Source: a virus. From it: a DNA stretch of 64,000 nucleotides. Below are positions 2,526 to 43,129 of the stretch, piece by piece; within the stretch, counting starts at the first letter, position 1, and each line of letters opens with the position of its first letter. Made by a program: the position numbers and the translations under genes. Below the pieces are notes generated by a model that did no database searches, was not told the DNA's origin, and worked only from the letters and a program-made list of their open reading frames with translations. Location of the stretch: positions 96,001 through 160,000 of IMG/VR virus record IMGVR_UViG_3300045988_137032; one strand, 5' to 3'.

Positions 2526-2537
2526 TACTAATGATTA

Positions 2538-3398: not shown

Positions 3399-3400
3399 AA

Positions 3401-25599: not shown

Positions 25600-25673
25600 T
25601 GCGCTCGGTGGAAGTCGAATCCACACTGAACGAAGCTTAAGTTCGTTGCCTCTGCCAATTGGGCTACCAGCGC
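25600..25673 (-). tRNA. tRNA, anticodon UAA (Leu UUA/UUG by anticodon), class-I architecture, no encoded CCA
   Basis: Minus strand: GCGCTGG-TA-GCCCAATTGGCAGAGGC-A-ACGAA-CTTAAGC-TTCGT-TCAGT-GTGGA-TTCGACT-TCCAC-CGAGCGC-A. Perfect anticodon and T stems, TTCGA T-loop, one G-G mismatch in the acceptor stem. Confidence 0.8.
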
Positions 25674-27736: not shown

Positions 27737-28012
27737 TTAAGATGCAATATATTCCACACAAATGTGCTCAAACGTATTGTTGCCTATGAAGTTATCGTAC
27801 TCCAGAGCAAGATCATTGATACGGTGAATATTATTCGCATCACTATCTTTCATGAGTACTTTCTCATCAAAGATAGATTGAATCACAGCTTCTTTTCTTG
27901 TATAATGCTGGCAAAAGTTTGTAGTAATGGTCTTAAGATTCCCATTACTATCTTTGAAAGATACCAGCTTCCTACAGAAATATTTCCTTCTCTTACTGGC
28001 TTTGAAAAACAT
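27737..28012 (-). CDS. small hypothetical protein
   Basis: 91-aa ORF with AAGGAG SD. Confidence 0.6.
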   Translation of the reverse strand: MFFKASKRRKYFCRKLVSFKDSNGNLKTITTNFCQHYTRKEAVIQSIFDEKVLMKDSDANNIHRINDLALEYDNFIGNNTFEHICVEYIAS

Positions 28013-28026
28013 CTATCGCATTCTCC

Positions 28027-28323
28027 TTAATAATAGTAAATTTCGGTAGACTCAATGTGGTATTTATTCATACCCTTCTTTCCATCAACGTCATAGCTGA
28101 CAGTAAGAGTATTATCATCAGGACGATCGATGTCAAGCTTCATATCATGATACCCACGGAAAGTTTCTTCCAGAGAATCAAGATAATCAACTGCGTCATC
28201 CTTATTGTAATATCCATGAAGTACTTTACTGGGAACACAAACTACTTCATTCCCAGAAGTAGTATCATAGATATCGTACATGATAAGGTTGACGTTAATG
28301 GTTTTTACTTCAGGATTTTCCAT
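28027..28323 (-). CDS. small hypothetical protein
   Basis: 98-aa ORF with AAGGAG SD. YNKDDAVDYLDSL helix motif. Confidence 0.6.
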   Translation of the reverse strand: MENPEVKTINVNLIMYDIYDTTSGNEVVCVPSKVLHGYYNKDDAVDYLDSLEETFRGYHDMKLDIDRPDDNTLTVSYDVDGKKGMNKYHIESTEIYYY

Positions 28324-28337
28324 AAATACAAATCTCC

Positions 28338-28619
28338 TTATACATATCCTTCGTCTTCTACACGAACTTTTTCAATTTGCACGGTATGGACTTCTTGAAT
28401 TACTTTAGATTCTGCTCCAGGAATCATATCGCATGCTGTGATACGTTTCGTATAAGTGAGGCCCATTCCATCCGGATGCATCATAGCGGTTAAATTATTC
28501 TTTGAAAACTTCTCCAACCACTTTTGTGCATTCAGCAAACGATAGAATGCGGAATTTACTTTTACTTCAATTCCGTATCCATATTCTTCTCGGTCGATGG
28601 TTTCAAGTATTACGTACAT
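28338..28619 (-). CDS. small hypothetical protein
   Basis: The ATG at 28619 (MYVILETID) has AAGGAGG upstream. Confidence 0.6.
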   Translation of the reverse strand: MYVILETIDREEYGYGIEVKVNSAFYRLLNAQKWLEKFSKNNLTAMMHPDGMGLTYTKRITACDMIPGAESKVIQEVHTVQIEKVRVEDEGYV

Positions 28620-28645
28620 AAACAATCCTCCTTGTGTTAATATAA

Positions 28646-29143
28646 TCAATAAAGGTTCATACCTTTTATCAATTCAAAGTTAAAGCAATAATACGTATCA
28701 TCTCTTGACGTATATGCTTTAATCGTACGAGGAACCCCATAGGTTGCAACTACTTCAGGAGAAGCAAGATCAGCATTCTTATTGATCTTAAGAACGATAT
28801 GACCTTTTGTATTCATCAAAGAAACCATATTAGGAATTTTGATCATCATTCCTGCTTTATAATAAGTGACCTTATGAGATGGATCATATCCAGTGGATTT
28901 TCGGCGGAATGTAACGGTAGCAATCTCATTATCGGGAGCCACTTCTACATTCGTTTCGCCATTGTAATTGCGTTTGAAGTATTTATCTTCACAATCACAA
29001 ATCAGTTTATTCCATGTGATATTTCTTGCAGTAGGTTTCATATACAGCTTAGACTGATACAAAGAGAATTTAGGTGCATAAGAACCATCATAGGATTCTT
29101 TCTTTTGAAGAATGGCAAATACTGCCATTTCTGTTTCAAACAT
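28646..29143 (-). CDS. small hypothetical protein
   Basis: 165-aa ORF with GAGGAGG SD. TAATG overlap. Confidence 0.6.
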   Translation of the reverse strand: MFETEMAVFAILQKKESYDGSYAPKFSLYQSKLYMKPTARNITWNKLICDCEDKYFKRNYNGETNVEVAPDNEIATVTFRRKSTGYDPSHKVTYYKAGMMIKIPNMVSLMNTKGHIVLKINKNADLASPEVVATYGVPRTIKAYTSRDDTYYCFNFELIKGMNLY

Positions 29144-29415
29144 TATTCGTCCTCCTCAACAAGAGTTTCCTTCTTTACCATCACGCGGATATCAACCGTT
29201 TTATCCGGATATTCAAAAGTTTGATGCAATATGCGATTGAGAAGTTTATTCAATGTGATGAAAGGAGATTCACATCCATTCGCATAATACTCCACAAGTC
29301 TATCATGTGCCAGTTTAATGGAAGCATATTTCTTTCCTTCAGTATACATAATGACATGATCTTTTGAAGTATCTTTAATATAAACATGAATCTCATAGAT
29401 AGGTATTTCTTTCAT
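29143..29415 (-). CDS. small hypothetical protein
   Basis: 90-aa ORF with AAGGAG SD. Confidence 0.6.
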   Translation of the reverse strand: MKEIPIYEIHVYIKDTSKDHVIMYTEGKKYASIKLAHDRLVEYYANGCESPFITLNKLLNRILHQTFEYPDKTVDIRVMVKKETLVEEDE

Positions 29416-29420
29416 AGAGT

Positions 29421-29711
29421 CTACTCTCCTTCATCAAATTCACATTCCTGAATTTGTGCTACTATGAGTATACAACCATACTTCTTGATATCACTGTAAT
29501 TGTAATAAGAAGCATAGCAAAACACGGTACCGTCATCTTCATTGACTTCAAATGGCGTATGCTTGAAAAGACTATGAACGGAATCACCATCTTTATTAAA
29601 GTCATCTTTAATGCGATAAAGAGCTTTAATTGCTTTCTCTCTATTCTTAAAGACTTTCTTTAAGATAGATGACGAATGGTTATTCGTAACCATAATGACA
29701 TAGGCTTTCAT
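29421..29711 (-). CDS. MK(V/A)Y(A/V)I-family protein
   Basis: MKAYVIMVTNN...FKNREKAIKALYRI. AAAGGAGG SD, preceded by TTAATGATATATTATA. Confidence 0.65.
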   Translation of the reverse strand: MKAYVIMVTNNHSSSILKKVFKNREKAIKALYRIKDDFNKDGDSVHSLFKHTPFEVNEDDGTVFCYASYYNYSDIKKYGCILIVAQIQECEFDEGE

Positions 29712-29754
29712 CTATTTAATACCTCCTTTAATGATCTATAAGTATAATATATCA

Positions 29755-30042
29755 TTAAAGGTTTCTTATTTCAACCCATACGGAAATCACTTCAGACGTA
29801 CTGGGTTCTTTTCCGTGATACACCATATCATGATAAATACACATCTTGTCATCATTTACTTTGTATTCAGAGAATTCAAAGTCTTTATGCTCAAGATGTG
29901 TATTATTTTCTTCATTGAGATTCAGTGTATCACAAATCTCATGAAGTGTATTGAGGGCTTGATCTTTTGAATAATACAGAGGATCATACAAATGATGGAT
30001 TCTGTCAGGATAATACCCTGATACGATAGCATAAACTTTCAT
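29755..30042 (-). CDS. MK(V/A)Y(A/V)I-family protein
   Basis: MKVYAIVSGYY...YYSKDQALNTLHEI. Confidence 0.65.
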   Translation of the reverse strand: MKVYAIVSGYYPDRIHHLYDPLYYSKDQALNTLHEICDTLNLNEENNTHLEHKDFEFSEYKVNDDKMCIYHDMVYHGKEPSTSEVISVWVEIRNL

Positions 30043-30054
30043 AATTAAACCTCA

Positions 30055-30339
30055 TCATTCTTTAGTAAATTCTGATGTATTTTCTGTATACATTTCTTTT
30101 GCAAATGCACTAATATTCGGTTCCTTAGAATCTTTCCAGGTTTCAATAACAGAAAGATCCTCTTCATCAACTGTGTAATACACATGACCATTTTCAACAG
30201 AAATAAGCTGTGACAGTGCGTTCTTTATTTCGTTAAGACGAGAAATACAGCTTTCTTTCGTTGTATAAACCATATCCTCTATCCGAGCAATATTCTTATA
30301 AGGCCCACCATAGGTATGGCAGATAGCATAAACTTTCAT
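30055..30339 (-). CDS. MK(V/A)Y(A/V)I-family protein
   Basis: MKVYAICHTYG...YTTKESCISRLNEI. Confidence 0.65.
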   Translation of the reverse strand: MKVYAICHTYGGPYKNIARIEDMVYTTKESCISRLNEIKNALSQLISVENGHVYYTVDEEDLSVIETWKDSKEPNISAFAKEMYTENTSEFTKE

Positions 30340-30341
30340 AA

Positions 30342-30617
30342 TTAGTTTACCTCAAATTCACGAATATATGCTACAATAATATTATGCTTAAGCTTAGGAT
30401 AATCTTTATATTTTATTGGGTAAAATATCGTCTCGGCCTTTTCATCAACTTCATACGGCTCATGTAATTCAGCAGCCGGTATACGAACCATTCCTTCATT
30501 ATACTGATTGCAAAGTTCATGAAGACGATCAATTGCTTTATCATGATCAAAATGGAATGATTTTATCTCAGGACCATTATTATTAATCAAACTAACTACA
30601 AAATAAACTTTCGTCAC
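30342..30617 (-). CDS. MK(V/A)Y(A/V)I-family protein; paralog of 37001..37282
   Basis: The GTG at 30617 (TKVYFVV) lies 10 nt after AAAGGA. The C-terminus EPYEVDEKAETIFYPIKYKDYPKLKHNII matches 37001..37282. Confidence 0.65.
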   Translation of the reverse strand: MTKVYFVVSLINNNGPEIKSFHFDHDKAIDRLHELCNQYNEGMVRIPAAELHEPYEVDEKAETIFYPIKYKDYPKLKHNIIVAYIREFEVN

Positions 30618-30709
30618 GGTAAACACATCCTTTCATATTTAACCGTCTACTATGATATGAAAAAATAAGCACACAAGCCGGATATAAAATCACAGCTTGT
30701 GTGCTTATT
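30618..30709. repeat. left copy of a perfect 92-bp inverted repeat (partner 36909..37000)
   Basis: GGTAAACACATCCTTTCATATTTAACCGTCTACTATGATATGAAAAAATAAGCACACAAGCCGGATATAAAATCACAGCTTGTGTGCTTATT equals the reverse complement of 36909-37000. It contains the hairpin 30664-30709. Confidence 0.9.
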
Positions 30710-30854
30710 TTTGCATTTCTTAGTTAGTTATTAGATGACTTTGTTAAAAGATGATAAAGGGGTTTTTGTTATATTTTTTTTTTGAAAAATTTATTGATCC
30801 TAAATGACAAAAATCAATAAATTGTTAACAATTTAAACGTGCATAAAAGTATAA

Positions 30855-32696
30855 TCATTCTCCGTTACCATTCGCTGTAATAATGCTTGTATTACCGAAT
30901 CCAATTTCGATATTCCAGGAATTGCACCAATGAGATACAATTTCAATATTACCTGATGGAAGCATTTCGGTTTTATAATCATTTGGTCTAAAGCCCAAGT
31001 TGCCGGTAAAATCAATAACAAGCTCTGTATTCGGCTTAACTAAGAATGACTCCTCAATATCCGTAACACTAATAGATTTAATATCCCTCTCTGTAAAATT
31101 AACCGTTGAATGATCTGATGATATTCTTCCTTTCACATACACATTAGATTTATATGATTTCAATAGATTTACAATTGTACTATTTTTAAATTCATCGCCT
31201 ATATTAAAAGTAAATTTTACCGTATCGGATTTATATCCATTATAATAGTAACCACCATCACTATCAGTTTTTATTGTATACATGTCAGCAGCCAATCCCC
31301 AATGAGACCTAAAATAGTTCTCATTTTTTGAAAGTTTTACATTTTCGACTATAATAAATCTTTCTTGAGCTGTATATTGCCCGCTTTTTACAGTGATCAC
31401 AGTATCGACTGTATTGCCTGTAACTTCACTATACGACATATCGCCAGTGGACGAATTTACATTGACAACTGAATTATTCGAGCTATACGAAATCGGACTT
31501 GATTGCGTGCATGTATCAGGTGTCGGCTTATACCTCAGGGTGCATGATTGCGCAATGCCAGGAATATAATATACACCACCAAAGTTACCATAATAGTATG
31601 GCCATGAACCACTTACTTTAGCAATACCAGTCTGAGCAACGCCCATATTATTCAAGTCAAGAATCTGAGAGAAAGTCTTCCCTCCATATTTATATGCAGC
31701 ATTCGATCCAGGATTGTCTTTCACCATGATATAATTTAAAACCCACTGCAATGTACTATAGTGGTCATTTGCGGTAGATATTGCATCAAATTTTGATTTT
31801 AAAGAATTTACAGCATCCGATATCGTAGAATCTTTCTGATCAACTTCGAATTGTGTGTAATATCTATCATCATGATTATGTGCTTCAGGAGGATATGCGG
31901 TAGGCTTATTGGTCACATTAGACCACGATATACCATCGGATGTTGTTACGATTTTAAACCATTCGCCAAACGAATTCGTTGAATCGCCATGTGCTTGTTT
32001 TCTCATATAAATGAGACCGCTATCCGTGATAGCAAGTTCAACCGCTCCAATTCCACTAGAATCAGTCCATCCGTCAAAGCCAATCACAGTTGCATAAGCT
32101 GTATTTGTTCCTGCATCTGGTAAACCGATAACTGTAGAATCTTTAATTCCTACAAAATTAAAACCATTTGTGTAATCACTAGGTTTTGTAGCAGTATCCC
32201 TAGTATCTTCGGTTATCTCAAGGCTATCATGCGTATGCGTATTAGGACTCTTGGTGTCCAGTTCTTCTTTCAGAAGTCTGCCACAGTTTGCAGACAATGC
32301 AGATTCACTGTCCGTAGAATCTAACCAGTCTTTCACCAGCGGTGAAACCTTATACCACGTGATATTAGCATTTGCTAATTTTTTACCGTAGAACACACTT
32401 GTCTCAAGATTAAAGATATAGTCGCCAGTTCCCGCTACGAATACATCATATCCATAGCTCTTACCGGATGTCAATTCATCTTTGATCTTAATAGCAGGTG
32501 TGTTTTTGACGTTGGAAGTATCCGTTACATTGTCACCGTCTTTATTGACGCTGTATGTAAAGCTTCCATGATACCAACCGGGTTCTGTAATCTGGATAAT
32601 ATCAGTCATAGTACTGGAAATTGTAATCGGTTTATTCAATGTAATATTAGATCCATCGTTTCTAATTAGAGATGCTTTCTTATCTCCAATAGTCAT
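30855..32696 (-). CDS. tail fibre protein
   Basis: SALSANCGRLLKEELDTKSPNTHTH and WSNVTNKPTAYPPEAHNHD are typical fibre repeat motifs. The ORF is open to 32804, but the ATG at 32696 has AGGATG upstream. Confidence 0.7.
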   Translation of the reverse strand: MTIGDKKASLIRNDGSNITLNKPITISSTMTDIIQITEPGWYHGSFTYSVNKDGDNVTDTSNVKNTPAIKIKDELTSGKSYGYDVFVAGTGDYIFNLETSVFYGKKLANANITWYKVSPLVKDWLDSTDSESALSANCGRLLKEELDTKSPNTHTHDSLEITEDTRDTATKPSDYTNGFNFVGIKDSTVIGLPDAGTNTAYATVIGFDGWTDSSGIGAVELAITDSGLIYMRKQAHGDSTNSFGEWFKIVTTSDGISWSNVTNKPTAYPPEAHNHDDRYYTQFEVDQKDSTISDAVNSLKSKFDAISTANDHYSTLQWVLNYIMVKDNPGSNAAYKYGGKTFSQILDLNNMGVAQTGIAKVSGSWPYYYGNFGGVYYIPGIAQSCTLRYKPTPDTCTQSSPISYSSNNSVVNVNSSTGDMSYSEVTGNTVDTVITVKSGQYTAQERFIIVENVKLSKNENYFRSHWGLAADMYTIKTDSDGGYYYNGYKSDTVKFTFNIGDEFKNSTIVNLLKSYKSNVYVKGRISSDHSTVNFTERDIKSISVTDIEESFLVKPNTELVIDFTGNLGFRPNDYKTEMLPSGNIEIVSHWCNSWNIEIGFGNTSIITANGNGE

Positions 32697-32751
32697 AGAA
32701 TCACATCCTAACATAAAACTAACATTACCCCGTAGGGGAATAAGATAGTTC

Positions 32752-32808
32752 CTGAATGGTATCCAATAAACAAATCCGTAACGGATTTGTTTATTGGATA
32801 CCATTCAG
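32752..32808. repeat. perfect 57-bp palindrome (28-bp arms, 1-nt centre) between divergent fibre genes
   Basis: CTGAATGGTATCCAATAAACAAATCCGT-A-ACGGATTTGTTTATTGGATACCATTCAG, checked base by base. Confidence 0.9.
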
Positions 32809-32859
32809 CATATTGTAGAAATTGTAAATGAAGCAATATGTATGAGAGAGGTGGTTAAT

Positions 32860-33750
32860 ATGGCATCTGAAAAAGTTTTATATAAAGCTGAAGATGGCAC
32901 ATTAATTAATCTTAGTACTAAGGTAATCAATAATACAACAACTGATAGTACAACGGATGCATTAAGTGCTGCTCAAGGCAAAGTATTAGCTTCTAAGTTT
33001 ACTACTCTTACAAAGAGTTCAGTTGGACTCGGTAATGTAGATAATACAGCCGACTCCGCTAAAACTGTAAAAGCTGCAACTAAACTTCAGACATACAAGG
33101 CTGGCAGCACTACAGAAACATATGGTGATGAGTATCCGTTTTATGTGCAGTGGCAGAGTGATAATACATTGAAACTGACTTGTGATGGTTATAAAACAAG
33201 AGTAGATATAGCTGATTCTGCTCTCCCATTGTCGGGTGGAACTTTATCCGGGCAGGTTAATTTTGGGTCCAGCTCATACTATGTGAAAGCAGATGGTACT
33301 GCTAATTTCAAGACAGTTACGGGTGCAGTCTATAACGACTATGCTGAGTTCTTCCCTCGTGGAGAAGCCACTGAACCTGGCGATATCGTAGCACTCGATC
33401 TTTCTTCTGATCATGAATCTTACATCAAAGCAACTGCAACAAGTAAAATTGTTGCTGGTGTCCATTCCGATGAGTATGCTATGCTTATTGGTGGTGATAA
33501 GGTTGATGATGGGAATTACGTGGAAAAGAATATTGAAAAATATATTCCCGTAAGTCTCTGTGGCCGTGTCTTCTGCAAGTGTGTTGGCAAGATTCACCGT
33601 GGTGATACGATTGTCGTATCGGATATTCCCGGTATCGGACGAGCAAAATTACCCAACGATTATGTGGAAAATACACAGATCGTTGGATACGCAGTGGATG
33701 AAGACATGAACGAAGAGATTCGTCGAGTACGTATTCGTGTAAAGGGGTGA
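32860..33750 (+). CDS. tail fibre/spike protein with C-terminal peptidase-G2-like intramolecular chaperone domain
   Basis: DALSAAQGKVL...GLGNVDNTADSAKTVKAATKL fibre motifs. NDYAEFFPRGE...GDIVALD...KIVAGVHSD resembles the ADYAEYFEW...GVVS pattern of IMC domains. GAGGTGG SD. Confidence 0.55.
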   Translation: MASEKVLYKAEDGTLINLSTKVINNTTTDSTTDALSAAQGKVLASKFTTLTKSSVGLGNVDNTADSAKTVKAATKLQTYKAGSTTETYGDEYPFYVQWQSDNTLKLTCDGYKTRVDIADSALPLSGGTLSGQVNFGSSSYYVKADGTANFKTVTGAVYNDYAEFFPRGEATEPGDIVALDLSSDHESYIKATATSKIVAGVHSDEYAMLIGGDKVDDGNYVEKNIEKYIPVSLCGRVFCKCVGKIHRGDTIVVSDIPGIGRAKLPNDYVENTQIVGYAVDEDMNEEIRRVRIRVKG

Positions 33751-33756: not shown

Positions 33757-34620
33757 ATGGCAAGTCAAGGTTCAAAGATTACTGCTTCTGATTTTACCTC
33801 TTTGAAAAATCTCGTCAATAGCGAAATTGGTCGGCGAGGTAAAGCAGAAGGTACTGGGCAGAACCAGAGCTACGGAAGTTTATCTTCTTATTCTGGATCT
33901 GCTTATCAATATACAACTACTCCTGCAGCAGGAGTAAAGATTGCTACGGAGCATATTACGAAGATTACAACACCAATCGGTGCAATCAATGGATCAACTC
34001 CTTCCTTTTCCAGTGGAACTGTGGTAAGAGCATCCGATATTGCAAATGCCGCAAATACACTAAGTGGACTCACTGTCATTAAGGAAAACGCTTCCTCTAG
34101 TGGCTGCGCTGGTAAATGCAGTGGACTTTGCTCTTCTGGATGTAATACAACATGCTCAAGTTGTTCCAGTAACTGTGGTAGTGGATGTGCAACTTGCGCT
34201 AGTGGTTGTTCTAGTGGATGCACGAATACATGTTCTGGAGGCTGTTCAGGTAGTTGCGATGGCGATTGCAATGGCTGTTCCGGCTGCGACGGATGTAGTG
34301 ATACCTGTAAAACAGACTGTAGTGGCGGCTGTAAAGAACGCTGTAATGCTAACTGTGCTAGTGATTGTGGTGGATCTTGTAGATTTACCTGCCTCGCACT
34401 ATGCGGAAATTGCCAAAATTCTTGTGATGATTCATGCTCTGGCCATTGCGGAACAAAATGTACAGATAGCTGCGACCTTGACTGTACTGGATCATGCAAA
34501 GGAAGTTGTAGTGGCGGTTGTGACGGTAGTTGTAGTGGCGGTTGTAAGAGTTGCTCTGGCTCATGCGAAGGAAACTGTACAGGTAGCTGTAGTGGATGTT
34601 CCGGTAAATTCTTATTTTAA
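33757..34620 (+). CDS. CXXX-repeat cysteine-rich protein (Cys-free 116-aa N-domain plus ~170-aa Cys repeat)
   Basis: From nt 34105 onward I count 44 Cys at 3-4 residue spacing (CAGKCSGLCSSGCNTTC...CSGCSG). Confidence 0.8.
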   Translation: MASQGSKITASDFTSLKNLVNSEIGRRGKAEGTGQNQSYGSLSSYSGSAYQYTTTPAAGVKIATEHITKITTPIGAINGSTPSFSSGTVVRASDIANAANTLSGLTVIKENASSSGCAGKCSGLCSSGCNTTCSSCSSNCGSGCATCASGCSSGCTNTCSGGCSGSCDGDCNGCSGCDGCSDTCKTDCSGGCKERCNANCASDCGGSCRFTCLALCGNCQNSCDDSCSGHCGTKCTDSCDLDCTGSCKGSCSGGCDGSCSGGCKSCSGSCEGNCTGSCSGCSGKFLF

Positions 34621-34647
34621 TAGATAGTGTGGAATGAGGTGCTATAA

Positions 34648-35229
34648 GTGAGCGTTTATAAACCAAATAATGATCACGAACTTAAGAAAGTCTTTATAGA
34701 AAATACCCCGATAATTAAGTTCGTTTCCCATGATGTATTTGAAGACAACGATTGGAAAGAATTCATGCAGCAATGCCCCGATAATTCGAATCAGTTCGAA
34801 TGGTGCATTTGGGCCGCTGGAATTTTCCGTTGCGATAATATCATGGATGATAAGTTTGACACATACGCGGCATACTGCGCATCCGTGATTCAAAGCATTG
34901 CAAAAGATTGTAATGTGGAGTGTTCTGACGATCGTATGATCGTCCTTGCATATGGTCTCGCAGCACGGACTTTCAATTTTGAAGCTGCAAAACTTGAAAA
35001 GTCCGATTATAATTTTGATGCAATGCTTAATGCATCTGATTACGAATGCACCGATGATATTGATTTCTTATCAATGTGGGAAATGCTTGTCATGACTATC
35101 CGATTCATTCGTGTTCTTGATCCGTCAAATGTCAAAGCACTGATCAAAGTCATGAAAAAGGTAAATTCCATTCGTGATAAGTATAATGAAGTATACACCC
35201 GGATGAGTAACATGACAGCTAATTATTAA
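34648..35229 (+). CDS. hypothetical protein
   Basis: 193-aa ORF. GTG start 8 nt after GAGGTG. Confidence 0.55.
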   Translation: MSVYKPNNDHELKKVFIENTPIIKFVSHDVFEDNDWKEFMQQCPDNSNQFEWCIWAAGIFRCDNIMDDKFDTYAAYCASVIQSIAKDCNVECSDDRMIVLAYGLAARTFNFEAAKLEKSDYNFDAMLNASDYECTDDIDFLSMWEMLVMTIRFIRVLDPSNVKALIKVMKKVNSIRDKYNEVYTRMSNMTANY

Positions 35230-35254
35230 TATATTTTAGGGAGAGTGCACGTTT

Positions 35255-35554
35255 ATGAAAATTATTAGCATTACGACTCAAGAAAGCGAAGCCGTTGAGC
35301 GGGCTTATTATGAGTCGCAATCATATGAATCCATCGTTTCTATTCTCTGTAGAGAATTGAATGAAAACGCAAATCCTTTAACATCTGAGATGCTCCATCA
35401 TTATATCGACTTGTGCAAAACTGCAAAGATGCGTCTCAAATTGACGCAAGACAATGTAATTGGCAGATACGTCGACAAGTCGGAGTTTAATAATGCCCCG
35501 GTAACATTTGATTTTGAGCGCGAGGAGATGTTGGTATCAGATGAAAAAGCGTAA
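35255..35554 (+). CDS. small helical protein, possible accessory factor of the radical SAM enzyme
   Basis: 99-aa ORF. Its 3' end overlaps the ATG of the radical SAM gene, suggesting translational coupling. Confidence 0.55.
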   Translation: MKIISITTQESEAVERAYYESQSYESIVSILCRELNENANPLTSEMLHHYIDLCKTAKMRLKLTQDNVIGRYVDKSEFNNAPVTFDFEREEMLVSDEKA

Positions 35555-36905
35555 TAAGCGTCTCTATGAAGAGTATACTGATATGGTCCAAAGGCTGTAT
35601 AAGAAAGACTTTGTTCTCAGCGGAGCATTATCAGCATTGAAAATTTGCAGATATGTGACTTTTCAGATTACGAATGCTTGCAATCTTCGGTGTTCTTATT
35701 GCTATGAGCATAATAAGAACTGTGGAGCCATGAGCCTTGATACAGCCAAGAAAGTCGTCGACTATATTCTTGACTTGTATGCTGACAACACATCTGATTT
35801 CATCTCTCAGCAAACAAAGGGTGTTGTTCTTGATTTTATCGGCGGAGAGCCTCTTCTGGAAGCTGAACTGATTGAGCATATTTGCGACTATTGGTTCGAG
35901 CAGTGCTATAAAAGAGACATTCCTCTCGGCCCGTTTACAAGAATCTCGTTTGCTACAAATGGTAAGGCTTGGTTTGAGCCTGCATCCATGCATTTATTTG
36001 AAAAATACCATGATATCATGTCGGTCACAGTATCTATTGATGGTGTTCAAGAACTTCATGATATGTACCGTGTTGACAGTAATGGCGTTGGAAGTTTTGA
36101 AATGGCTTGGCGAGCTTTTCAAGATGCAAAAGCTCGATATGGCTGGCTTAATTCCAAGATGACATTTGTTCCCGGATCAATCAAATATTTATACTCCAGT
36201 GTGAAAATGATGATTGATGAAGGGTGCACTTATATTCATGGTAATTGTGCATATGAGCCCATGTATACAAATGAAGATGGGAAAAACTTGTATAACGAGC
36301 TTAAGAGACTTGCCAATTATATCATAGATGAGCATCCGGATGTATTCTTTGCAATGTTTAATCCAGATGAATATGGTGAAGCAGTCGATTTAGTGCATGA
36401 TGATAACAACTACTGTGGTGGTACGGGAAATATGCTATCATTTGCTCCGGACGGCAAAGCATATCCATGTATCAGATACGCTCCCATTTCTATCGGAAAT
36501 GAGAAAGCAGCCAAAGTATGCTTTGGCGATGTCAATAATGGTGGACTATACGCAACCGAAGAACAACGCAAAATTAAGCGTGAGTTGGATGCTATCACCC
36601 TGACATCGCAATCTACAGACGAATGTATCAATTGCCCTGTATCCAAAGGATGTGGATGGTGCTCTGGATATAATTACGAAAAATATGGTACTGCAAATAA
36701 GAGATATACTGGAATTTGCAAAGCACACAAAGGCAATGTCCTTGCTGTGTACTATTATGTGAACACTCGGTATCTTAAACTTGGCGATACGGAACCGAAG
36801 AAGATTAAACTGCCTTATGATGAGGTAGTAGAAATTCTCGGTAAAGAAGAAGCTGACAATCTTTTCGCCCTTGAAAAGGAAGCTTTTTCTCACTACGAAA
36901 TGTAA
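35541..36905 (+). CDS. radical SAM enzyme with SPASM-type C-terminal Cys clusters (peptide maturase-like)
   Basis: CNLRCSYC (CxxxCxxC), GGEPLL and C-terminal CGGTG...PCIRY...CINCPVSKGCGWCSG...CKAHKG. Confidence 0.8.
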   Translation: MKKRNKRLYEEYTDMVQRLYKKDFVLSGALSALKICRYVTFQITNACNLRCSYCYEHNKNCGAMSLDTAKKVVDYILDLYADNTSDFISQQTKGVVLDFIGGEPLLEAELIEHICDYWFEQCYKRDIPLGPFTRISFATNGKAWFEPASMHLFEKYHDIMSVTVSIDGVQELHDMYRVDSNGVGSFEMAWRAFQDAKARYGWLNSKMTFVPGSIKYLYSSVKMMIDEGCTYIHGNCAYEPMYTNEDGKNLYNELKRLANYIIDEHPDVFFAMFNPDEYGEAVDLVHDDNNYCGGTGNMLSFAPDGKAYPCIRYAPISIGNEKAAKVCFGDVNNGGLYATEEQRKIKRELDAITLTSQSTDECINCPVSKGCGWCSGYNYEKYGTANKRYTGICKAHKGNVLAVYYYVNTRYLKLGDTEPKKIKLPYDEVVEILGKEEADNLFALEKEAFSHYEM

Positions 36906-36908
36906 AAG

Positions 36909-37000
36909 AATAAGCACACAAGCTGTGATTTTATATCCGGCTTGTGTGCTTATTTTTTCATATCATAGTAGACGGTTAAATATGAAAGGATGTGTTTACC
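36909..37000. repeat. right copy of the perfect 92-bp inverted repeat
   Basis: Reverse complement of 30618-30709. Contains the terminator hairpin 36909-36954 (AATAAGCACACAAGC/GCTTGTGTGCTTATT followed by TTTTT). Confidence 0.9.
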
Positions 37001-37282
37001 ATGGCAAAAATTTATTCTGTATTTACTTTGATTGGTGGTTATGGCCCTGAGATAGAATCATCCTATTTTGATCATGATAGAGCAGTCAATCATCTTTATG
37101 AACTTTGCGATTACTATAATGAAGAAATGCGGAATGATCATGTACCGGCTGCTGAATGTCATGAGCCGTATGAAGTTGATGAAGAGACTGAGAAGATATT
37201 TTACCCAATAAAATATAAAGATTATCCTAAGCTTAAGCATATGATTATTACAGCATGGATTAGAGAATTGGAGGTTCAATAA
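37001..37282 (+). CDS. MK(V/A)Y(A/V)I-family protein; paralog of 30342..30617
   Basis: MAKIYSVFTLIGGYGPEIESSYFDHDRAV...EPYEVDEETEKIFYPIKYKDYPKLKHMII. Confidence 0.65.
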   Translation: MAKIYSVFTLIGGYGPEIESSYFDHDRAVNHLYELCDYYNEEMRNDHVPAAECHEPYEVDEETEKIFYPIKYKDYPKLKHMIITAWIRELEVQ

Positions 37283-37284
37283 TT

Positions 37285-37560
37285 ATGAAAGTTTATGCTA
37301 TTATTTCCACTTATGCATCAAATCCTGAAGCTGAGCTTGAATCTATTGCTTATTCTAGTAGAGAGAAAGCGATTGCGTATTTGTATTCATTATGTGATAA
37401 ATATAATGCATGGTGTAGAAAATCATCTTATCCAGAGCAGCGTACTCGGATATATGAAGTTGATGAAATTAACGGCGCCATCTATTATAAATACATTGAC
37501 TCTTTAAATCGTGTTTCTCGTATTGATGAAACATGGATTAAAGAATTAGAGGTAGAATAA
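37285..37560 (+). CDS. MK(V/A)Y(A/V)I-family protein
   Basis: MKVYAIISTYA...YSSREKAIAYLYSL. GGAGG SD. Confidence 0.65.
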   Translation: MKVYAIISTYASNPEAELESIAYSSREKAIAYLYSLCDKYNAWCRKSSYPEQRTRIYEVDEINGAIYYKYIDSLNRVSRIDETWIKELEVE

Positions 37561-37562
37561 TT

Positions 37563-37916
37563 ATGAAAATTTATGTTATCGTATGTAGAAATAACTATTC
37601 CACGTGGATAGATGATAAAACCTTTACTGAAGAAGCAGAAGCATTCCTATATGCTTACCGTTCAATTTCAAGTCCCGTAATGTGGAAAGTATGTCCGATT
37701 AATGTTGATATCTCTAATGAGATGAGTGTTTCTGACACACTACTTGGACAAAATAAGGATGTCTAGATTGAAATTCTCTATGACCCAAGAAACCACTTAG
37801 GTACTAGGCATGTTATCTCTCCTTCTCATATAAAGTATTATGCGCTTCCTACAGAGCAAGGTGATATAAATAACCTTAAAAGAGGATTAATACGTCGTAT
37901 TTATCAAGGGCTTTAA
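37563..37916 (+). pseudogene. MK(V/A)Y(A/V)I-family gene interrupted by an in-frame TAG (37764-37766)
   Basis: MKIYVIVCRNN...WKVCPINVDI...GQNKDV*IEILYDPRNHLG...ISP aligns across the stop with 26711..27184 (...TRNIWIEILYDTRYLG...ISP). The TAG sits at the W position. Confidence 0.6.
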
Positions 37917-37992: not shown

Positions 37993-38544
37993 ATGATGGA
38001 AATAAAAGAAGCCATTGTGGAAGCTTGTAGTAATAGTCTCATTACTGCAACAGAAGCAATGCAGTTATTTTCCATTATAACGGAATCCGAAGTAAGTGAA
38101 GTTGATAAAGACTTTAAACCAAAAGAAAGTATGAAATTATCATCTTTTCAGAAAATCCATATTACAGAATCCATCACAGAAGAATACAAAAGTAAATATC
38201 CGGATCTAAAGCATGTAAGATGCAAAGATACGGATACATACAAGTGTGATGGATATATGTGGATGGACGGAGAAAATCTAGTATGCCATGTAGGATCATG
38301 TGAATACTTGGATGATAAAACAAAATGGATCGTATCGTTAGAAATAACGAAAAACTATAAAGGTCATGGATTATCAAAACAACTGATTGATTATGCTGTG
38401 AAGAATATGAAATGCAAATATCTATCAGTGGATAAGAGCAATAAACTCGCAAAGATGATCTATGACGAATATGGGTTTAAAGTATATCAAGAAGACAAGA
38501 AAATGTATTATATGACACTGGATAAAAATCCAGTAAAATCATGA
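37993..38544 (+). CDS. GNAT-type acetyltransferase with capsid-targeting-like N-terminal leader
   Basis: Leader MMEIKEAIVEA. GNAT motif A-like NYKGHGLSKQLIDYAV...MIYDEYGFKV. Confidence 0.6.
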   Translation: MMEIKEAIVEACSNSLITATEAMQLFSIITESEVSEVDKDFKPKESMKLSSFQKIHITESITEEYKSKYPDLKHVRCKDTDTYKCDGYMWMDGENLVCHVGSCEYLDDKTKWIVSLEITKNYKGHGLSKQLIDYAVKNMKCKYLSVDKSNKLAKMIYDEYGFKVYQEDKKMYYMTLDKNPVKS

Positions 38545-38565: not shown

Positions 38566-39648
38566 ATGGATTGGATGAAATTACAACTTTCTATTTATGA
38601 AAGTTATTCCAATGGTGATATTACAAAAGACGCATGCGATAGTCTTATCAATTCCATCTATAATAAGATTGGTGATAGTATCGTTGAAGAAGCAGAAAAT
38701 GCTGAAAACGAATTCATCAATACTTCACTTAACGTGCTTACTGAAAATACTCATGATAGCAATTTACTTATGGAAGCAGCTAATACGTTCGCTGATAAAG
38801 TAAAAGCATTATGGGAAAAATTTAAAGCGTGGCTGAAAGCTTTAATTAATAGGCTATTTGGCAGAAAAGAAAAACCTTCCGGGAAAGTAAATGGTCCGAA
38901 AGGTTTAATGAATGCTTTAAATACGCTGAAATCGAAAGTGAAATCACTGAAAGGTGCTACTGGAGCTAAGGTAGCAGTAGCTATCGGTGGTATTGCAGTT
39001 TCTATCGCTGGTGTAAAGAAAGTTCTCAGCAACAAAGGCGATACAGAAGAAGTAGATGCTAATGCTGTAGATAAATCTTGTAAAGATATCATGGATGGTT
39101 GCCAATCAGTATCTGAAGATCAATCCAAAAAAAAAGGTACTGTGGATAAAGAGAATCCTGTATCAAAAGTTATCAAAGCACTCCGTGATACTGCATCATT
39201 AATTGGAAGTGTTGTGAGTGGATTGATCCATCGCAAGGCTTCCAATCAAACTGAAAATAAAGCGTCAAATAATCCAGTTCTTAGTAAAGAATTTATGGAC
39301 GCAATCAATAAGAAAGATAATCTTGCTGTAAAGATTATGATTAAGGATGCTATTGTTTTTGATGCCACAGACACAAAAGGGATTCGTAGTGTTCCTCCTA
39401 TGCTTTCAGAAGCTAAGAAGAGTACTCCTGAAATTTTTGACAACCAAGAAAAATTCGATGATATGACAGATGATAAGTCCAAATGGACAATGGATTATAT
39501 GAATTTGCATCTTGTGAAATTGATGAGTGGTAACTTCACGGAAGAGAATATTCATTATCTTGAAAAAGTTGCTAAAATAGCGATGAATAATAATTCTAAG
39601 AAAGATACTACATCAAAATCTTCTGATAATGATAAAGAAAGGGGATAG
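38566..39648 (+). CDS. leader-bearing putative internal head/ejection protein (type I leader)
   Basis: MDWMKLQLSIYES, LLMEAANTFADKVKALWEKFKAWLKALI, hydrophobic helix AKVAVAIGGIAVSIAGV. Ends with TAG. Confidence 0.45.
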   Translation: MDWMKLQLSIYESYSNGDITKDACDSLINSIYNKIGDSIVEEAENAENEFINTSLNVLTENTHDSNLLMEAANTFADKVKALWEKFKAWLKALINRLFGRKEKPSGKVNGPKGLMNALNTLKSKVKSLKGATGAKVAVAIGGIAVSIAGVKKVLSNKGDTEEVDANAVDKSCKDIMDGCQSVSEDQSKKKGTVDKENPVSKVIKALRDTASLIGSVVSGLIHRKASNQTENKASNNPVLSKEFMDAINKKDNLAVKIMIKDAIVFDATDTKGIRSVPPMLSEAKKSTPEIFDNQEKFDDMTDDKSKWTMDYMNLHLVKLMSGNFTEENIHYLEKVAKIAMNNNSKKDTTSKSSDNDKERG

Positions 39649-39653
39649 GAAAA

Positions 39654-40685
39654 ATGACAAATTTACAGCACGCTATTATGGAAGCTTCCAATTCAGATCT
39701 CATCTCATTTGAAAATGCATCAATGATGCTTACTATGTATGAGTCTGATGGTGAAGAAAAGGACACTATGGCCGATAAGATTAAAAAAGCTTGGGAGGCA
39801 TTTAAGAAATGGCTTCGTGACCTTATCAATAAGCTTACTGGTAAAAAGATTAACGACCGTGAGGTTAAAGTTCAGGAGCATAAGTGGAATGCTCTTAACA
39901 AATGCGCAAGCTATGTCAACAAAGCAGCGTCTAAGAATTTTACTGATGAAGATTCTGATGATGATCCTGTGATTGATAATCTTTTCATTGCATCAGAGTA
40001 TTTTACTGCAAAGACAGCAATTTCTCAGAAGATGGCAACTGTTACAGTCCAAGAGGTTCATGATCTGACAGTTAAAATTCATAAAGATCTTGATAAGATC
40101 ACTGAGAAAGCTGAAAATGGTACTCAAACACAGAAGAAGACCACAATGATGTATGTGCGGAAGATTTCCAATAACGTAACCTCTATTGAGAATCAGTGCA
40201 CGTCTTCTGATCATGCAAACTATGACACTGCTATTAAGCGTGCTTATCAGGATTATTTCGATAAGAATGTCAAGGACTATATGTACGTGCTGAATCTTCA
40301 GCTGATGTGCTCTAATGAGGGTCGCCCTGAAGATGACGATGGCCGATATGATTCGAAAGCCGACGCATATCGAGATTTCTGTCAGTCAATTAAAGCAAGA
40401 ATTGACGCTGAGTATTACAGAATTTCCAGAAATCCCGATATTGCAACTACCGAGGAAGAGAAGGCTAAACTACAAAAGGATCTTGAAGCTGGCAATGTGT
40501 CCGGCTATGCTGGTGATGTAATAAATCTTGCTAAGTTTGTTGGTAAGTGCTGCTCTCAGGTTAAAGCAAATAATTCTAGTAGCCTGAAGACAAAGTCTGG
40601 TAAGATTTATGATGAATATCATAAGATTATCAATTATCTTGCCTTCGAGATGAGATGGTGCAGGAATGCCAGACTGACTCACTAA
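39654..40685 (+). CDS. leader-bearing putative internal head/ejection protein (type II leader)
   Basis: MTNLQHAIMEAS...MYESD...ADKIKKAWEAFKKWLRDLI. Confidence 0.45.
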   Translation: MTNLQHAIMEASNSDLISFENASMMLTMYESDGEEKDTMADKIKKAWEAFKKWLRDLINKLTGKKINDREVKVQEHKWNALNKCASYVNKAASKNFTDEDSDDDPVIDNLFIASEYFTAKTAISQKMATVTVQEVHDLTVKIHKDLDKITEKAENGTQTQKKTTMMYVRKISNNVTSIENQCTSSDHANYDTAIKRAYQDYFDKNVKDYMYVLNLQLMCSNEGRPEDDDGRYDSKADAYRDFCQSIKARIDAEYYRISRNPDIATTEEEKAKLQKDLEAGNVSGYAGDVINLAKFVGKCCSQVKANNSSSLKTKSGKIYDEYHKIINYLAFEMRWCRNARLTH

Positions 40686-40697
40686 CAACTTATTTAA

Positions 40698-40741
40698 AAA
40701 TACACGTCTTATTAGTGATAATACTAATAAGACGTGTATTT
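40698..40741. terminator. bidirectional terminator between convergent family members
   Basis: Perfect 19-bp stem AAATACACGTCTTATTAGT/ACTAATAAGACGTGTATTT with flanking A and T runs. Confidence 0.75.
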
Positions 40742-40746
40742 TTTAA

Positions 40747-41616
40747 TTAAGAACGGACAACAAGATCTTTACCATTTCCAATAATACGATGACCGTTTTT
40801 ATCGAAAACGTCTGTTTCCGGATTTACGTATACTCGTTCAACAGGAACTGGTTTATTACTAAAAACACTCGGAAGAGATTCCACCCAAACAAGAATCCGA
40901 TGGAGAGTTCGAATCAGCTTACCTGTATTGGTTTGATCGCAATAATGTTGCTCAAGAGTAGAAATGATCTTATTGATACTCTTCTTGATGGTATCCACAA
41001 TACCAATCAGAGCAGCAACACCAACAAGCACCATGCCTTTCGAAATACGAACGGCATCAACTCCTGCAGACACTGTAGTCCAACCGATCATACCGCACTG
41101 AACCACAATCTCCAAAAGGTTTTTATACCAGGCTTCATCATCAATTGAACGTTTTGCTTTCTTGATATCCTTAGCAGATGGACTATCATTCGGATAAAAG
41201 AATTGAGTTACCTTAGCCGAAATATCAATAAGACTCTTATCAATATTTTTCAGAAGATCAACTGCTGCTTTCGGGAGAGAAACCTTTTCTTCACGCTTAC
41301 GTGCGCCAAGCTTTGTAAGAAGTTTGTCCCAAAGTTCAGATACCCATTTCTTAAACTTCGCAAGTGCATTGGAAACCTTCTGGCCGAAAGTTTCTGCTTT
41401 CTTTTCAAAATATGCACATGCAGCATCACCGTTTGCATAGTCGATAGCAGTCTCAATGAAAGTGGATTCTGCAAGATTCATTTCTGAAATAGCTTCTTCC
41501 ATATATGAAGATGATTCAGAATCAATCATATTCATAAGATCAAGTGCTGCCTCTGATGAAATAGATCCATCAGATGCGCCCTCATAAATCATAGATTTCA
41601 AATCATAAAAATCCAT
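40747..41616 (-). CDS. leader-bearing putative internal head/ejection protein (type I leader)
   Basis: MDFYDLKSMIYEG...ETFGQKVSNALAKFKKWVSELW. Hydrophobic helices near the C-terminus. Confidence 0.45.
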   Translation of the reverse strand: MDFYDLKSMIYEGASDGSISSEAALDLMNMIDSESSSYMEEAISEMNLAESTFIETAIDYANGDAACAYFEKKAETFGQKVSNALAKFKKWVSELWDKLLTKLGARKREEKVSLPKAAVDLLKNIDKSLIDISAKVTQFFYPNDSPSAKDIKKAKRSIDDEAWYKNLLEIVVQCGMIGWTTVSAGVDAVRISKGMVLVGVAALIGIVDTIKKSINKIISTLEQHYCDQTNTGKLIRTLHRILVWVESLPSVFSNKPVPVERVYVNPETDVFDKNGHRIIGNGKDLVVRS

Positions 41617-41677
41617 AATTATATATCTCCTTTCTAGTTTAAATATATTAAGACGCTTATATTGATGTTTTCTGATA

Positions 41678-41719
41678 AAAATGACTGAGAATAATTGGTT
41701 TTATTATTCTCAGTCATTT
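41678..41719 (-). terminator. terminator after 41726..43129
   Basis: AAATGACTGAGAATAAT/ATTATTCTCAGTCATTT stem with T-runs in both directions. Confidence 0.65.
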
Positions 41720-41725
41720 TTTTAG

Positions 41726-43129
41726 TTAAGACCAATTACGAGTCCTGAAAGTCTTCTGCATAACACAACCTTCATACCCACAAAGCATAGCGCGAGCAAT
41801 CTGGAGATCATCAACACACTTTACAATACCTTTGATTGCATCTAAATCATATTTCACATGGTTCTGGTTTTCAATATATCTGTATTTTTCAACAGCATCA
41901 GTTGCTTTCTTAGCGCGAGCAATCAATTCTTTTCCGAGATTGCACACATCACCAGACCCTTTCCTAAGATCCGCAGCATACCTATCAAAACTCGGGTCAC
42001 TGCTACCATAGAAATTTTCGTCGGTTTTATAATAAATCCCTTTAATCAGCTTTTCGCAATTATTATATGCACTCTGTACGAGTTTGGAATCGCTTTGCCA
42101 TTTTCCATACTGCTTTAAATATTCACCATAGAATGGTTTATTAGGATCCTGCCGTGACATCAATCTAAGATATTTATGGCAATCACCAATAGAAGCGTCA
42201 ACCGACTCATATACACCGTCAAAGTCAATACTCTTAAGGAATTCCTTTGCAGCAATACGTGCCTCTTTAGAAACCTTAGCGTCAGCAGCCTTACCAGCTT
42301 CCGTACTCATAGGAAGCATGAGAACAACTGCGTTACTTACAGCATCTGCTACAGATGCAGCAGCCTGAACAGCAGAAACAGCTGCAGAAGGAGAAGGCTT
42401 ATTATCTTCTTCTTTCTTCGCTGCGTTATTCGGTGCCTGAACAGGTGTGTCCGTCTTGTTATCATGAAGAACTGTCCTACTATCACGGCGAGCAAGATCT
42501 TCATAAGTCTTCGGAGTATGGTTTGAACTTTCTTCAGAAATAGGCTTTGCCGCGTCTGAATCAGCTACAGCGCTCGATGCCTGTGCAATCTCACCAGAAA
42601 TCTCAATGATTCTCACAGGCTCAACTTCTTCAGTAGGACCTTCAACTTTCTTGGAAGGCTTCAGCTTCTTAACGATCGCAACTGCGCCAACAACAGCTGC
42701 CAGCGCGGAAGCAATAGCAACTGCACCTTTAGCGCCCTTAAGCTTATTAAGACCATTCTTAAGCTGTTCAAGAGCCTTCATAAGTCCCTTAGGAACTTTA
42801 ATCTTACCCTTCTTAGCCTTCTTGGATCTGCCAGTGATCTTGTCGATAATACCTTTGACCCACTTCTTAAACTTTTCCCAAAGAGCACGAACCTTATCAC
42901 CGAAGGTCTTAGCTGCTTCAACAACGATATCGGTATCAATGCTTGCTGCCGACTCCATGATATTCATAGTAGAATCAATGAATTCGGTTTCAGCATGCCG
43001 CATTTCACTTACGATATCTTCGCCACGCTTGTTGTCGATGCTACAAATCATCGACTCACAGACAGCTTCTGAGATATCACCACATTCACATCTCTCATAG
43101 AGAGATAACTTAAGAGTATAATAATCCAT
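41726..43129 (-). CDS. leader-bearing putative internal head/ejection protein (type I leader)
   Basis: MDYYTLKLSLYER...IVVEAAKTFGDKVRALWEKFKKWVKGII...AVAIASALAAVVGAVAIV. Confidence 0.45.
   Translation of the reverse strand: MDYYTLKLSLYERCECGDISEAVCESMICSIDNKRGEDIVSEMRHAETEFIDSTMNIMESAASIDTDIVVEAAKTFGDKVRALWEKFKKWVKGIIDKITGRSKKAKKGKIKVPKGLMKALEQLKNGLNKLKGAKGAVAIASALAAVVGAVAIVKKLKPSKKVEGPTEEVEPVRIIEISGEIAQASSAVADSDAAKPISEESSNHTPKTYEDLARRDSRTVLHDNKTDTPVQAPNNAAKKEEDNKPSPSAAVSAVQAAASVADAVSNAVVLMLPMSTEAGKAADAKVSKEARIAAKEFLKSIDFDGVYESVDASIGDCHKYLRLMSRQDPNKPFYGEYLKQYGKWQSDSKLVQSAYNNCEKLIKGIYYKTDENFYGSSDPSFDRYAADLRKGSGDVCNLGKELIARAKKATDAVEKYRYIENQNHVKYDLDAIKGIVKCVDDLQIARAMLCGYEGCVMQKTFRTRNWS

Follow-up and report, generated by a model that had tools for sequence, protein, structure and literature searches.

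A CXXX-repeat-type radical SAM cassette behind a tail-fibre gene of a gut jumbo phage and the possible crosslinking of its cysteine-rich protein

The 64,000-nucleotide (nt) stretch of viral DNA analysed here, positions 96,001 to 160,000 of IMG/VR record IMGVR_UViG_3300045988_137032, is referred to as "the window", and all coordinates are window positions. Directly behind a tail-fibre gene it carries a cassette of four genes, which encode a cysteine (Cys)-rich protein of 287 amino acids (aa), two small accessory proteins and a radical S-adenosylmethionine (SAM) enzyme with a SPASM domain. Judged from sequence, this is very probably a maturation cassette of the CXXX-repeat type acting on the 287-aa protein. 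We lean, with somewhat more confidence than doubt, towards a variant of the CXXX-repeat system that is adapted to phages and would crosslink a protein associated with the tail fibre. Four features set this variant apart from the curated bacterial system: it has no TIGR04119 component, it has p193 instead, its target has a folded N-terminal domain (N-domain), and it lies in a tail-fibre setting. Relative loci collected for comparison carry L-numbers. The genes and domains concerned are as follows.

32794-33750, plus strand: tail-fibre gene, 318 aa (Pfam Phage_fiber_rpt, E 3e-8; matches PHROG tail-fibre families)
33220-33750, plus strand: C-terminal domain of this fibre, ~176 aa, which accompanies the cassette in other phages
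33757-34620, plus strand: gene of the Cys-rich protein, 287 aa, N-domain and CXXX array
33757-34104, plus strand: N-domain, aa 1-116, free of Cys (three helices predicted by AlphaFold2)
34105-34620, plus strand: CXXX array, aa 117-281, delimited by its Cys spacing, then a short hydrophobic tail, GKFLF, and the stop codon
34648-35229, plus strand: p193, all-helical accessory protein of 193 aa (synteny, AlphaFold2)
35255-35554, plus strand: p99, 99 aa, divergent TIGR04116 homolog (hhalign)
35541-36905, plus strand: radical SAM/SPASM enzyme, 454 aa from the ATG at 35541 (best match TIGR04115)

The Cys-rich protein begins with MASQGSKITASDF and has no Cys before residue 117. From there to residue 281 it contains 44, at a spacing of 4 in 35 intervals and of 3 in 8, and counting in the open reading frame (ORF) thus bears out a preliminary description of the sequence, which had noted a Cys-free region of 116 aa followed by 44 Cys every 3-4 residues. 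Cys makes up ~27 % of the array, in surroundings of small residues (between the Cys stand 33 Ser, 32 Gly, 12 Thr, 12 Asp, 9 Asn, 6 Ala and 6 Lys), and the array matches phrog_6085 (E 5e-11), a PHROG of unknown function. In a comparison of six diverged close relatives none of the 44 Cys columns varies, as against 46 of the 125 other array columns (37 %); in the N-domain 106 of 116 columns are invariant. The ratio of nonsynonymous to synonymous differences (pN/pS), in the frame starting at 33757, is 0.05-0.10 for the N-domain and 0.13-0.30 for the array. Recent tandem repetition at the DNA level, or slippage, was rejected as the origin of the array, Tandem Repeats Finder returning only one weak stretch of 12 nt x 3.5. 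The invariant Cys columns, the selection pattern and the lack of recent tandem repetition together indicate that the array is not a chance feature.

Two further ORFs, at 33906-34499 (minus strand) and at 34064-34627 (plus strand), overlie the array. Because selection acts on the frame from 33757, both were rejected as genes; they result from the repetitive composition of the codons. In its C-terminal third (34300-34620) the array occurs in at least two allelic forms among the phages of L004-L008, which are otherwise 95-99 % identical. Synonymous divergence (pS) amounts to 0.17-0.48 in the array, mostly 0.31-0.48, and in the N-domain mostly to 0.12-0.21, with 0.36-0.46 against L008. The mostly higher values in the array suggest recombinational mosaicism within it.

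As the same description had supposed, the repeat is fused to a domain with a predicted structure. AlphaFold2 models the N-domain with a predicted local distance difference test score (pLDDT) of ~90 as three helices (residues 10-27, 64-78 and 92-106) plus a small hairpin; L16, K17, E23, R26, R27, E65 and K69 are invariant. Word-indexed homolog searches recovered few or only close relatives of the N-domain and of p193, and an exhaustive search combined with locus mining was used instead. In the exhaustive HMMER search the N-domain family comprises 126 representative clusters at 50 % identity, in which it is nearly always N-terminal, and it is spread over jumbo phages, mid-sized phages and Clostridia prophages. 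A CXXX array, defined as at least eight CxxxC steps, is present in 68 of the 76 full-length members (at least 140 aa), and the other 8 look like frameshifted or truncated assemblies. On these sequences the N-domain appears essentially always joined to an array, i.e., the coupling is obligate. Array length across the family ranges from about 20 to 95 Cys. Variants have an additional beta-rich domain, either ahead of the N-domain (P0072) or within it (P0117), and in L032 an N-domain motif lies C-terminal to the array (a weak match, 15.9 bits). The N-domain has no match in Pfam, in NCBIfam or in the PDB, by sequence or by fold, and in BFVD it finds only uncharacterised gut-phage homologs. The phage collection contained no cultured phage with the domain, its single match being an unannotated metagenomic contig. 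We propose that it serves as a docking and/or recognition domain, and that the array is the substrate of the radical SAM enzyme.

The enzyme carries the CX3CX2C motif of radical SAM proteins at C47/C51/C54 and a SPASM pattern of seven Cys (C292, C310, C362, C365, C371, C374 and C393) that are invariant in relatives down to 34 % identity; the motifs read earlier as radical SAM and SPASM are therefore real. Its best NCBIfam match is TIGR04115, "radical SAM peptide maturase, CXXX-repeat target family", with 297 bits (E 2.5e-88) over model positions 3-359 of 359, followed by PapB (NF047865, 150 bits), CcpM, the SCIFF maturase and QhpD; phrog_1802 is matched with 209 bits. The curated CXXX-repeat maturase family named in the preliminary description thus exists and is the closest one, but the score stays below its cutoff of 350 bits, as does that of the L001 enzyme (301 bits). 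A tree of 100 non-redundant radical SAM domains from the fetched loci clarifies this position. One clade holds every enzyme with a phage-type N-domain neighbour and is sister to the canonical bacterial enzymes. Within this phage/prophage clade the enzymes of the window, L001, L009 and L018 form a long-branch subgroup, whereas clade-mates with the same N-domain targets (L024-L032) reach 383-492 bits against TIGR04115 and pass the cutoff. Since it is nested among them, the window enzyme belongs, as a divergent member, to the phage/prophage branch of the family.

Two other identities were rejected. The model of the anaerobic sulfatase maturase (anSME) gives just 52 bits against 297 for TIGR04115, so that the enzyme does not group with sulfatase maturases or with other non-peptide enzymes, and a viperin-like or defence-system role finds only a generic match of the radical SAM core to pVip (46 bits).

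Between the Cys-rich gene and the enzyme lie p193 and p99, and the enzyme is therefore the third gene downstream, in agreement with the earlier reading. Its ATG overlaps the end of the p99 gene by 14 nt, which suggests translational coupling. The small accessory protein anticipated beside the repeat is p99: a profile of 18 phage p99 sequences aligned with one of 63 bacterial TIGR04116 members gives an hhalign probability of 95.9 % (E 5.5e-9), end to end over 84 of 90 columns, even though the curated TIGR04116 hidden Markov model (HMM) itself yields no match to p99 at E<=10. In L024 (6686-8320) a 544-aa ORF joins a p99/TIGR04116-like domain to the N-terminus of the radical SAM enzyme, and the gene order is altered to enzyme, target, a 187-aa protein and then an endolysin-like gene. 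Taken together, homology and fusion indicate that p99 is likely to be a partner or recognition subunit of the enzyme.

The second accessory protein, p193, is syntenic in 21 loci and evolves fast, with only 16-33 % identity between lineages and no invariant Cys. AlphaFold2 predicts a helical bundle (pLDDT 81, predicted TM-score 0.79) for which the PDB contains no significant fold neighbour (best E 0.66), and nothing resembling p193 was found in Pfam, NCBIfam, PHROG or PADLOC. A degenerate form of TIGR04119 was considered for it and rejected (hhalign probability 0.1 %, no conserved Cys, helical bundle). By sequence comparison p193 appears specific to the phage-type cassette, in which it holds the place of the bacterial TIGR04119 while being unrelated to it.

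The bacterial CXXX-repeat system is curated but biochemically uncharacterised. In the canonical locus L002 a CXXX target with a twin-arginine translocation (Tat) signal (TIGR04114/04117) is accompanied by three maturation components, namely the radical SAM enzyme (TIGR04115, 630 bits), a second maturase of 321 aa (TIGR04119, 235 bits) and a 91-aa partner (TIGR04116, 105 bits), an arrangement shared by ~70 loci of Bacteroidales and Clostridia. The phage system resembles it in the full-length best match of an enzyme with an intact SPASM domain from the sister clade, in the homologous partner of ~90 aa and in the repeat itself, a unit of roughly C-[S/T]-G-[S/G/T] with a period of 4 whose composition is alike in phage-type and in TIGR04114/04117-type targets. 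The two differ in that p99, like the window enzyme with its 297 bits, remains below the curated cutoff, that the unrelated helical p193 stands where bacteria have TIGR04119, and that the bacterial target has a Tat signal peptide where the phage protein has its helical, folded N-domain of ~115 aa. Moreover, the bacterial genes form a stand-alone operon with TatA/TatC whereas the phage cassette is part of a tail-fibre module. No Tat or Sec signal was detected in phage-type targets, compared with a Tat signal in 38 of 55 bacterial ones. The window target has no match to the NCBIfam HMMs of CXXX targets; that of L001 scores 21.3 bits with TIGR04114, against a cutoff of 20.

Several observations on the bacterial side may be added. 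L002 itself (MT837480.1) was deposited as "Bacteriophage sp.", a 6.8-kb contig with a canonical CXXX system followed by TatA and TatC. Its enzyme groups with Prevotella/Bacteroidales loci, and the contig is therefore probably bacterial rather than phage DNA. In Clostridia L034-L038, L040, L045, L046, L048, L063, L064, L074 and L096 the TIGR04115 enzyme and TIGR04119 are fused into a protein of ~710-735 aa, which supports a joint action of both in the bacterial system. Finally, metagenome-assembled genomes (MAGs) of Candidatus Termititenax and Margulisiibacteriota (L094, L100, L101, L102, L104) encode giant CXXX proteins (495-667 aa, 79-122 Cys), next to a TIGR04115-like enzyme of ~267 bits, below the cutoff, and a distant TIGR04116-like protein, with no TIGR04119.

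What the enzyme does to the array is best approached through PapB of the freyrasin ranthipeptide system, its nearest biochemically characterised relative, which makes leader-dependent Cys thioethers and requires a Cys-X3-Asp/Glu acceptor (PMC12373016). Both are SPASM enzymes without a fused N-terminal recognition element for RiPPs (peptides made on ribosomes and modified after translation), PapB is the second-best HMM match of the window enzyme, and both systems combine repeated Cys motifs in the substrate with an action that depends on a leader (shown for PapB, PMC12373016) or handle. On the other hand, PapB modifies a short peptide and not a 287-aa protein with 44 Cys, and the 150 bits of the window enzyme lie far under the 340-bit cutoff of NF047865, so that an assignment to the PapB type was rejected. 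PapB also has an acidic acceptor C-terminal to each Cys, while Asp or Glu occurs in 29 % of the units of the window array, in ~21 % across phage-type targets and in 0 % in Erwinia phage Asesino; because of this composition the PapB-style Cys-X3-Asp/Glu reaction was rejected as a general one. A thioether is still the product we favour, since all characterised relatives of the enzyme form thioethers and PapB illustrates leader-dependent crosslinking of Cys, but on this analogy we hold the assignment to be evenly balanced. The leader of a classical RiPP precursor is short, unstructured and cleavable, lies at the N-terminus and is recognised by a PqqD-like element; the N-domain, at 115 aa, has a confidently predicted fold, and the weakly matched motif of L032 lies on the other side of the array.

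A Cys-rich chain may also be viewed as a metallothionein-like or iron-sulfur/metal-thiolate scaffold, in the virion or elsewhere, whose sites the enzyme and its partners would load or remodel, or which they would modify only slightly. The high Cys density in a context of small residues fits such a role, as does the lack of an autonomous fold in the AlphaFold2 model of the array, which is what would be expected of a metal-dependent domain. The frequent Tat signal of the bacterial targets points in the same direction, given that the Tat pathway exports folded, often cofactor-loaded proteins, but it suits a covalently stapled, bulky product equally well. Metal-thiolate proteins usually need no dedicated radical SAM enzyme, and their Cys are typically arranged as CxC, CC or CxxC and not with a strict period of 4, a norm from which the array departs. 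In addition, the formation of Cys thioethers is common to all of the closest characterised enzyme families (PapB: PMC12373016). We regard the metal scaffold as improbable.

Evidence for a connection with the virion comes from the surroundings of the cassette. Both genes that precede the Cys-rich ORF (32794-33750 and 30855-32804) carry Pfam Phage_fiber_rpt, and the two tail-fibre genes of the preliminary description are confirmed as such. The order fibre, Cys-rich protein, p193, p99 and radical SAM enzyme is kept in the window, L001 and L004-L022, i.e., in ~20 gut-phage loci on contigs of 30-54 kb as well as on jumbo-sized ones, with the enzymes 62 % to 100 % identical. In these ~20 loci the Cys-rich gene begins 4-7 nt past the fibre gene or overlaps it. 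A strongly conserved C-terminal domain of the fibre, with the motifs AVYNDYAE.FPR...PGD..AL and GRV.VKV.G.V..GD, lies upstream of the Cys-rich gene in 22 loci. Nothing similar to it was found in the PDB; three of six members weakly match the Pfam intramolecular chaperone (IMC) domain Peptidase_G2 at a best E of 0.006, below threshold, and on this sub-threshold likeness the domain could be a self-cleaving chaperone. L001 has tail-fibre and tail proteins downstream too, and the cassette is thus flanked by tail genes on both sides. The same N-domain targets recur in prophage tail modules of Clostridia/Bacillota MAGs (L025, L026, L028, L029, L049, L099); the order in L026 is baseplate wedge, fibre, a target with 95 Cys, a p99-like protein, the radical SAM enzyme, holin and endolysin. 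From this genomic context the product is, on balance, probably associated with the tail fibre or virion.

The close relative L005 has a complete second cassette (1-3480, minus strand) that is divergent from the first. It comprises a fibre of 372 aa, a Cys-rich protein that has 29 Cys in 228 aa, p216, p100 and an enzyme cut by the contig end. The second enzyme is ~54 % identical to the first copy, and the site corresponds to that occupied by the 649-aa fibre gene in the window.

The slot behind a fibre gene may, however, simply be a permissive insertion site, the modified product being cargo (a "moron") that acts outside the virion, either within the cell or upon release at lysis, for instance a RiPP-like protein with an antimicrobial or signalling function, or a factor of benefit to a lysogen. 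The cassettes of L024 and L026 indeed sit between fibre and holin/endolysin genes, a typical position of cargo; the enzyme clade resembles RiPP maturases, and the bacterial relatives are stand-alone, Tat-exported and unrelated to virions. The tight junction of the Cys-rich and fibre genes across ~20 loci of several phage types argues otherwise, as do the embedding of the L001 cassette between tail genes and the duplication of the L005 cassette along with a second fibre. Searches of NCBIfam, Pfam and by fold detected no obvious leader-cleavage protease in the cassette, and there is no export signal. The window phage has, besides the gene of a major head protein, split genes for the beta subunits of RNA polymerase, and 95-100 % identical copies of the window occur on IMG/VR contigs of 145-262 kb, with near-identical contigs of 255-262 kb among them; by these genes it is a phiKZ-like jumbo phage of lytic type from the gut, a more precise form of the jumbo-phage-like genome perceived earlier. 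In such a carrier lysogen-benefit cargo makes little sense. The coupling to the fibre, the missing export signal and the lytic-type jumbo carrier together weigh against the cargo explanation, which we consider unlikely.

It is also conceivable that the array folds by itself into a disulfide or zinc domain after release while the enzyme acts on another substrate, such as the fibre or a small molecule. The activity of the enzyme is, after all, read from its sequence, it scores below the family cutoff, and the phage cassette has no TIGR04119. Against this, radical SAM enzyme and CXXX target occur together in all phage-type loci and in ~70 bacterial ones, the enzyme stays with the Cys-rich gene where the fibre gene changes (L008, L024, L026), and disulfides are unlikely to form in anoxic hosts and habitats. 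This explanation appears to us very improbable.

A comparable arrangement exists in enterobacterial phiKZ-like jumbo phages, namely Erwinia phage Asesino (gp183-185 with gp180/181) and the Salmonella SPN3US-type phage SEGD1 (gp166-170), in which small array proteins of the CSGx type lie directly upstream of a SPASM radical SAM enzyme and beside annotated virion structural genes. These systems differ from that of the window in several respects. Their enzyme is only ~26 % identical and matches PapB and TIGR04115 equally at ~125 bits, a second, shorter radical SAM enzyme and a 295-aa protein are present, and neither p99 nor p193 has a homolog. The target N-termini of ~50 aa are not homologous to the N-domain (hhalign 0.2 %), and for the same reason a shared "SLKN" recognition helix was rejected. 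CXXX ORFs are found upstream of both radical SAM genes (L105, which is SEGD1 of the SPN3US species, 2095-3123; L003, Asesino, 2097-3140), for example a 134-aa ORF at L105 2497-2901, while L105 2095-2238 looks truncated or frameshifted. In GenBank the CXXX ORFs in the region of SEGD1 gp169 and gp170 and of Asesino gp184 and gp186 are in wrong frames or unannotated, and published proteomic searches may therefore have missed them. Our literature search found no publication on the chemistry or biology of the CXXX-repeat family, on its phage variant or on the SPN3US-type/Asesino arrangement.

Tail-fibre tip adhesins of the T-even gp38 type are small separate proteins encoded right after the fibre gene, in which an N-terminal domain for attachment is joined to a hypervariable C-terminal one rich in Gly; they need no modifying enzyme and have no Cys ladder. 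The Cys-rich protein is likewise encoded directly downstream of a fibre gene and also combines a conserved N-domain with a Gly/Ser-rich C-terminal region that varies between close relatives. In the absence of any similarity in sequence or fold the analogy is purely functional.

In the crosslinking model that we prefer, the 287-aa protein would be the substrate. Its three-helix N-domain would offer a handle to the enzyme complex and probably also dock on the fibre encoded just upstream, the 44-Cys array being the part that is modified. The radical SAM/SPASM enzyme would work in partnership with p99, and p193 may act as a chaperone or scaffold. 5'-Deoxyadenosyl radical chemistry would then introduce many covalent crosslinks along the array, most likely thioethers from Cys sulfur to carbon on nearby Ser, Thr, Gly, Asn/Asp or similar residues. 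The chain, rich in Gly, Ser and Cys, would thereby assume a compact or rod-like shape that withstands proteases and does not respond to redox conditions, with the variable residues between the Cys exposed. Modification would take place in the cytoplasm of an anaerobic gut host, a reducing compartment that does not allow disulfides to form. A covalent, redox-independent staple suits particles that are assembled in a reducing cytoplasm and released into the anoxic gut.

A number of points weigh against this model. The enzyme of the window, at 297 bits, is below the TIGR04115 cutoff of 350, and none of the 28 phage-type loci has TIGR04119, the second maturase of the canonical system, which means that the phage reaction may differ from the bacterial CXXX reaction. 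Acidic acceptors of the PapB type occur in only ~21-29 % of the units, and AlphaFold2 gives no confident fold for the array (pLDDT below 50). Neither the N-domain nor p193 matches any known virion-protein fold, the placement of any member in a virion is deduced from gene context, and the cassettes of the temperate phages L024 and L026 occupy the slot between fibre and lysis genes that is a classic site of cargo.

The wider neighbourhood includes the following features.

30855-32804, minus strand: second tail-fibre gene, 649 aa, divergently transcribed and without a cassette of its own (Pfam Phage_fiber_rpt, E 1e-7)
30323-30712, no strand assigned: left arm of an inverted repeat, encoding a small paralogous protein (repeat search; 88 % complementary)
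36906-37301, no strand assigned: right arm of the inverted repeat, which begins one base past the stop codon of the radical SAM gene

The inverted repeat noticed earlier as the boundary of a 6.2-kb segment is real: its arms are 88 % complementary, lie ~6.2 kb apart and enclose the fibre and cassette segment. They consist, however, of paralogous ORFs of 94 aa and 96 aa, and the repeat is thus a pair of small genes bordering the fibre module and no part of the CXXX system. Small paralogous genes of ~90-100 aa, many of which start with MKVYAI, are arrayed at 27737-30626 (minus strand) and 36992-37766 (plus strand), inverted around the fibre/cassette module, and the innermost pair forms the 88 % inverted repeat. 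These arrays could help the fibre module to be inverted or exchanged. Just past the right array lies an acetyltransferase-like ORF (37993-38544; phrog_21214, E 5e-7), followed at 38566-43129 by four paralogous genes of 289-467 aa, two per strand, that have no PHROG match but share an N-terminal motif, MD(W/Y/F)..LK.S.YE....G.I..., and a helical, Lys- and Ala-rich middle part. A tRNA-Leu with the anticodon TAA is encoded at 25600-25673 (minus strand). A scan for promoters and terminators gave counts equal to the shuffled background.

The CXXX-repeat radical SAM family is common in gut Bacteroidales and Clostridia, and the phage variant, a compact cassette of four genes with a single large substrate, provides a convenient entry to its biochemistry. 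Cultivable SPN3US-type and Erwinia jumbo phages with analogous ORFs give immediate genetic access. If the crosslinking model is true, this would be the first post-translational crosslink installed by a radical SAM enzyme in a virion protein, and the chemistry of the CXXX-repeat family would come to light. Crosslinking of a tail component by a phage-encoded enzyme would constitute a new principle of virion assembly, suited to anoxic habitats without disulfides, and would equip phages that infect anaerobes with a redox-proof and protease-proof adhesin or whisker, the exposed residues between the Cys being free to diversify. In its most general form, which we put forward only tentatively and with more doubt than conviction, the idea is that RiPP-type radical chemistry builds part of the virion, a docking domain and a poly-Cys chain being turned into a thioether-stapled "ladder" in widespread fibre-tip proteins of gut phages. 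With 126 clusters the N-domain family is not rare, and in the human gut virome it probably has an influence on how hosts are recognised or on how stable the particles are.

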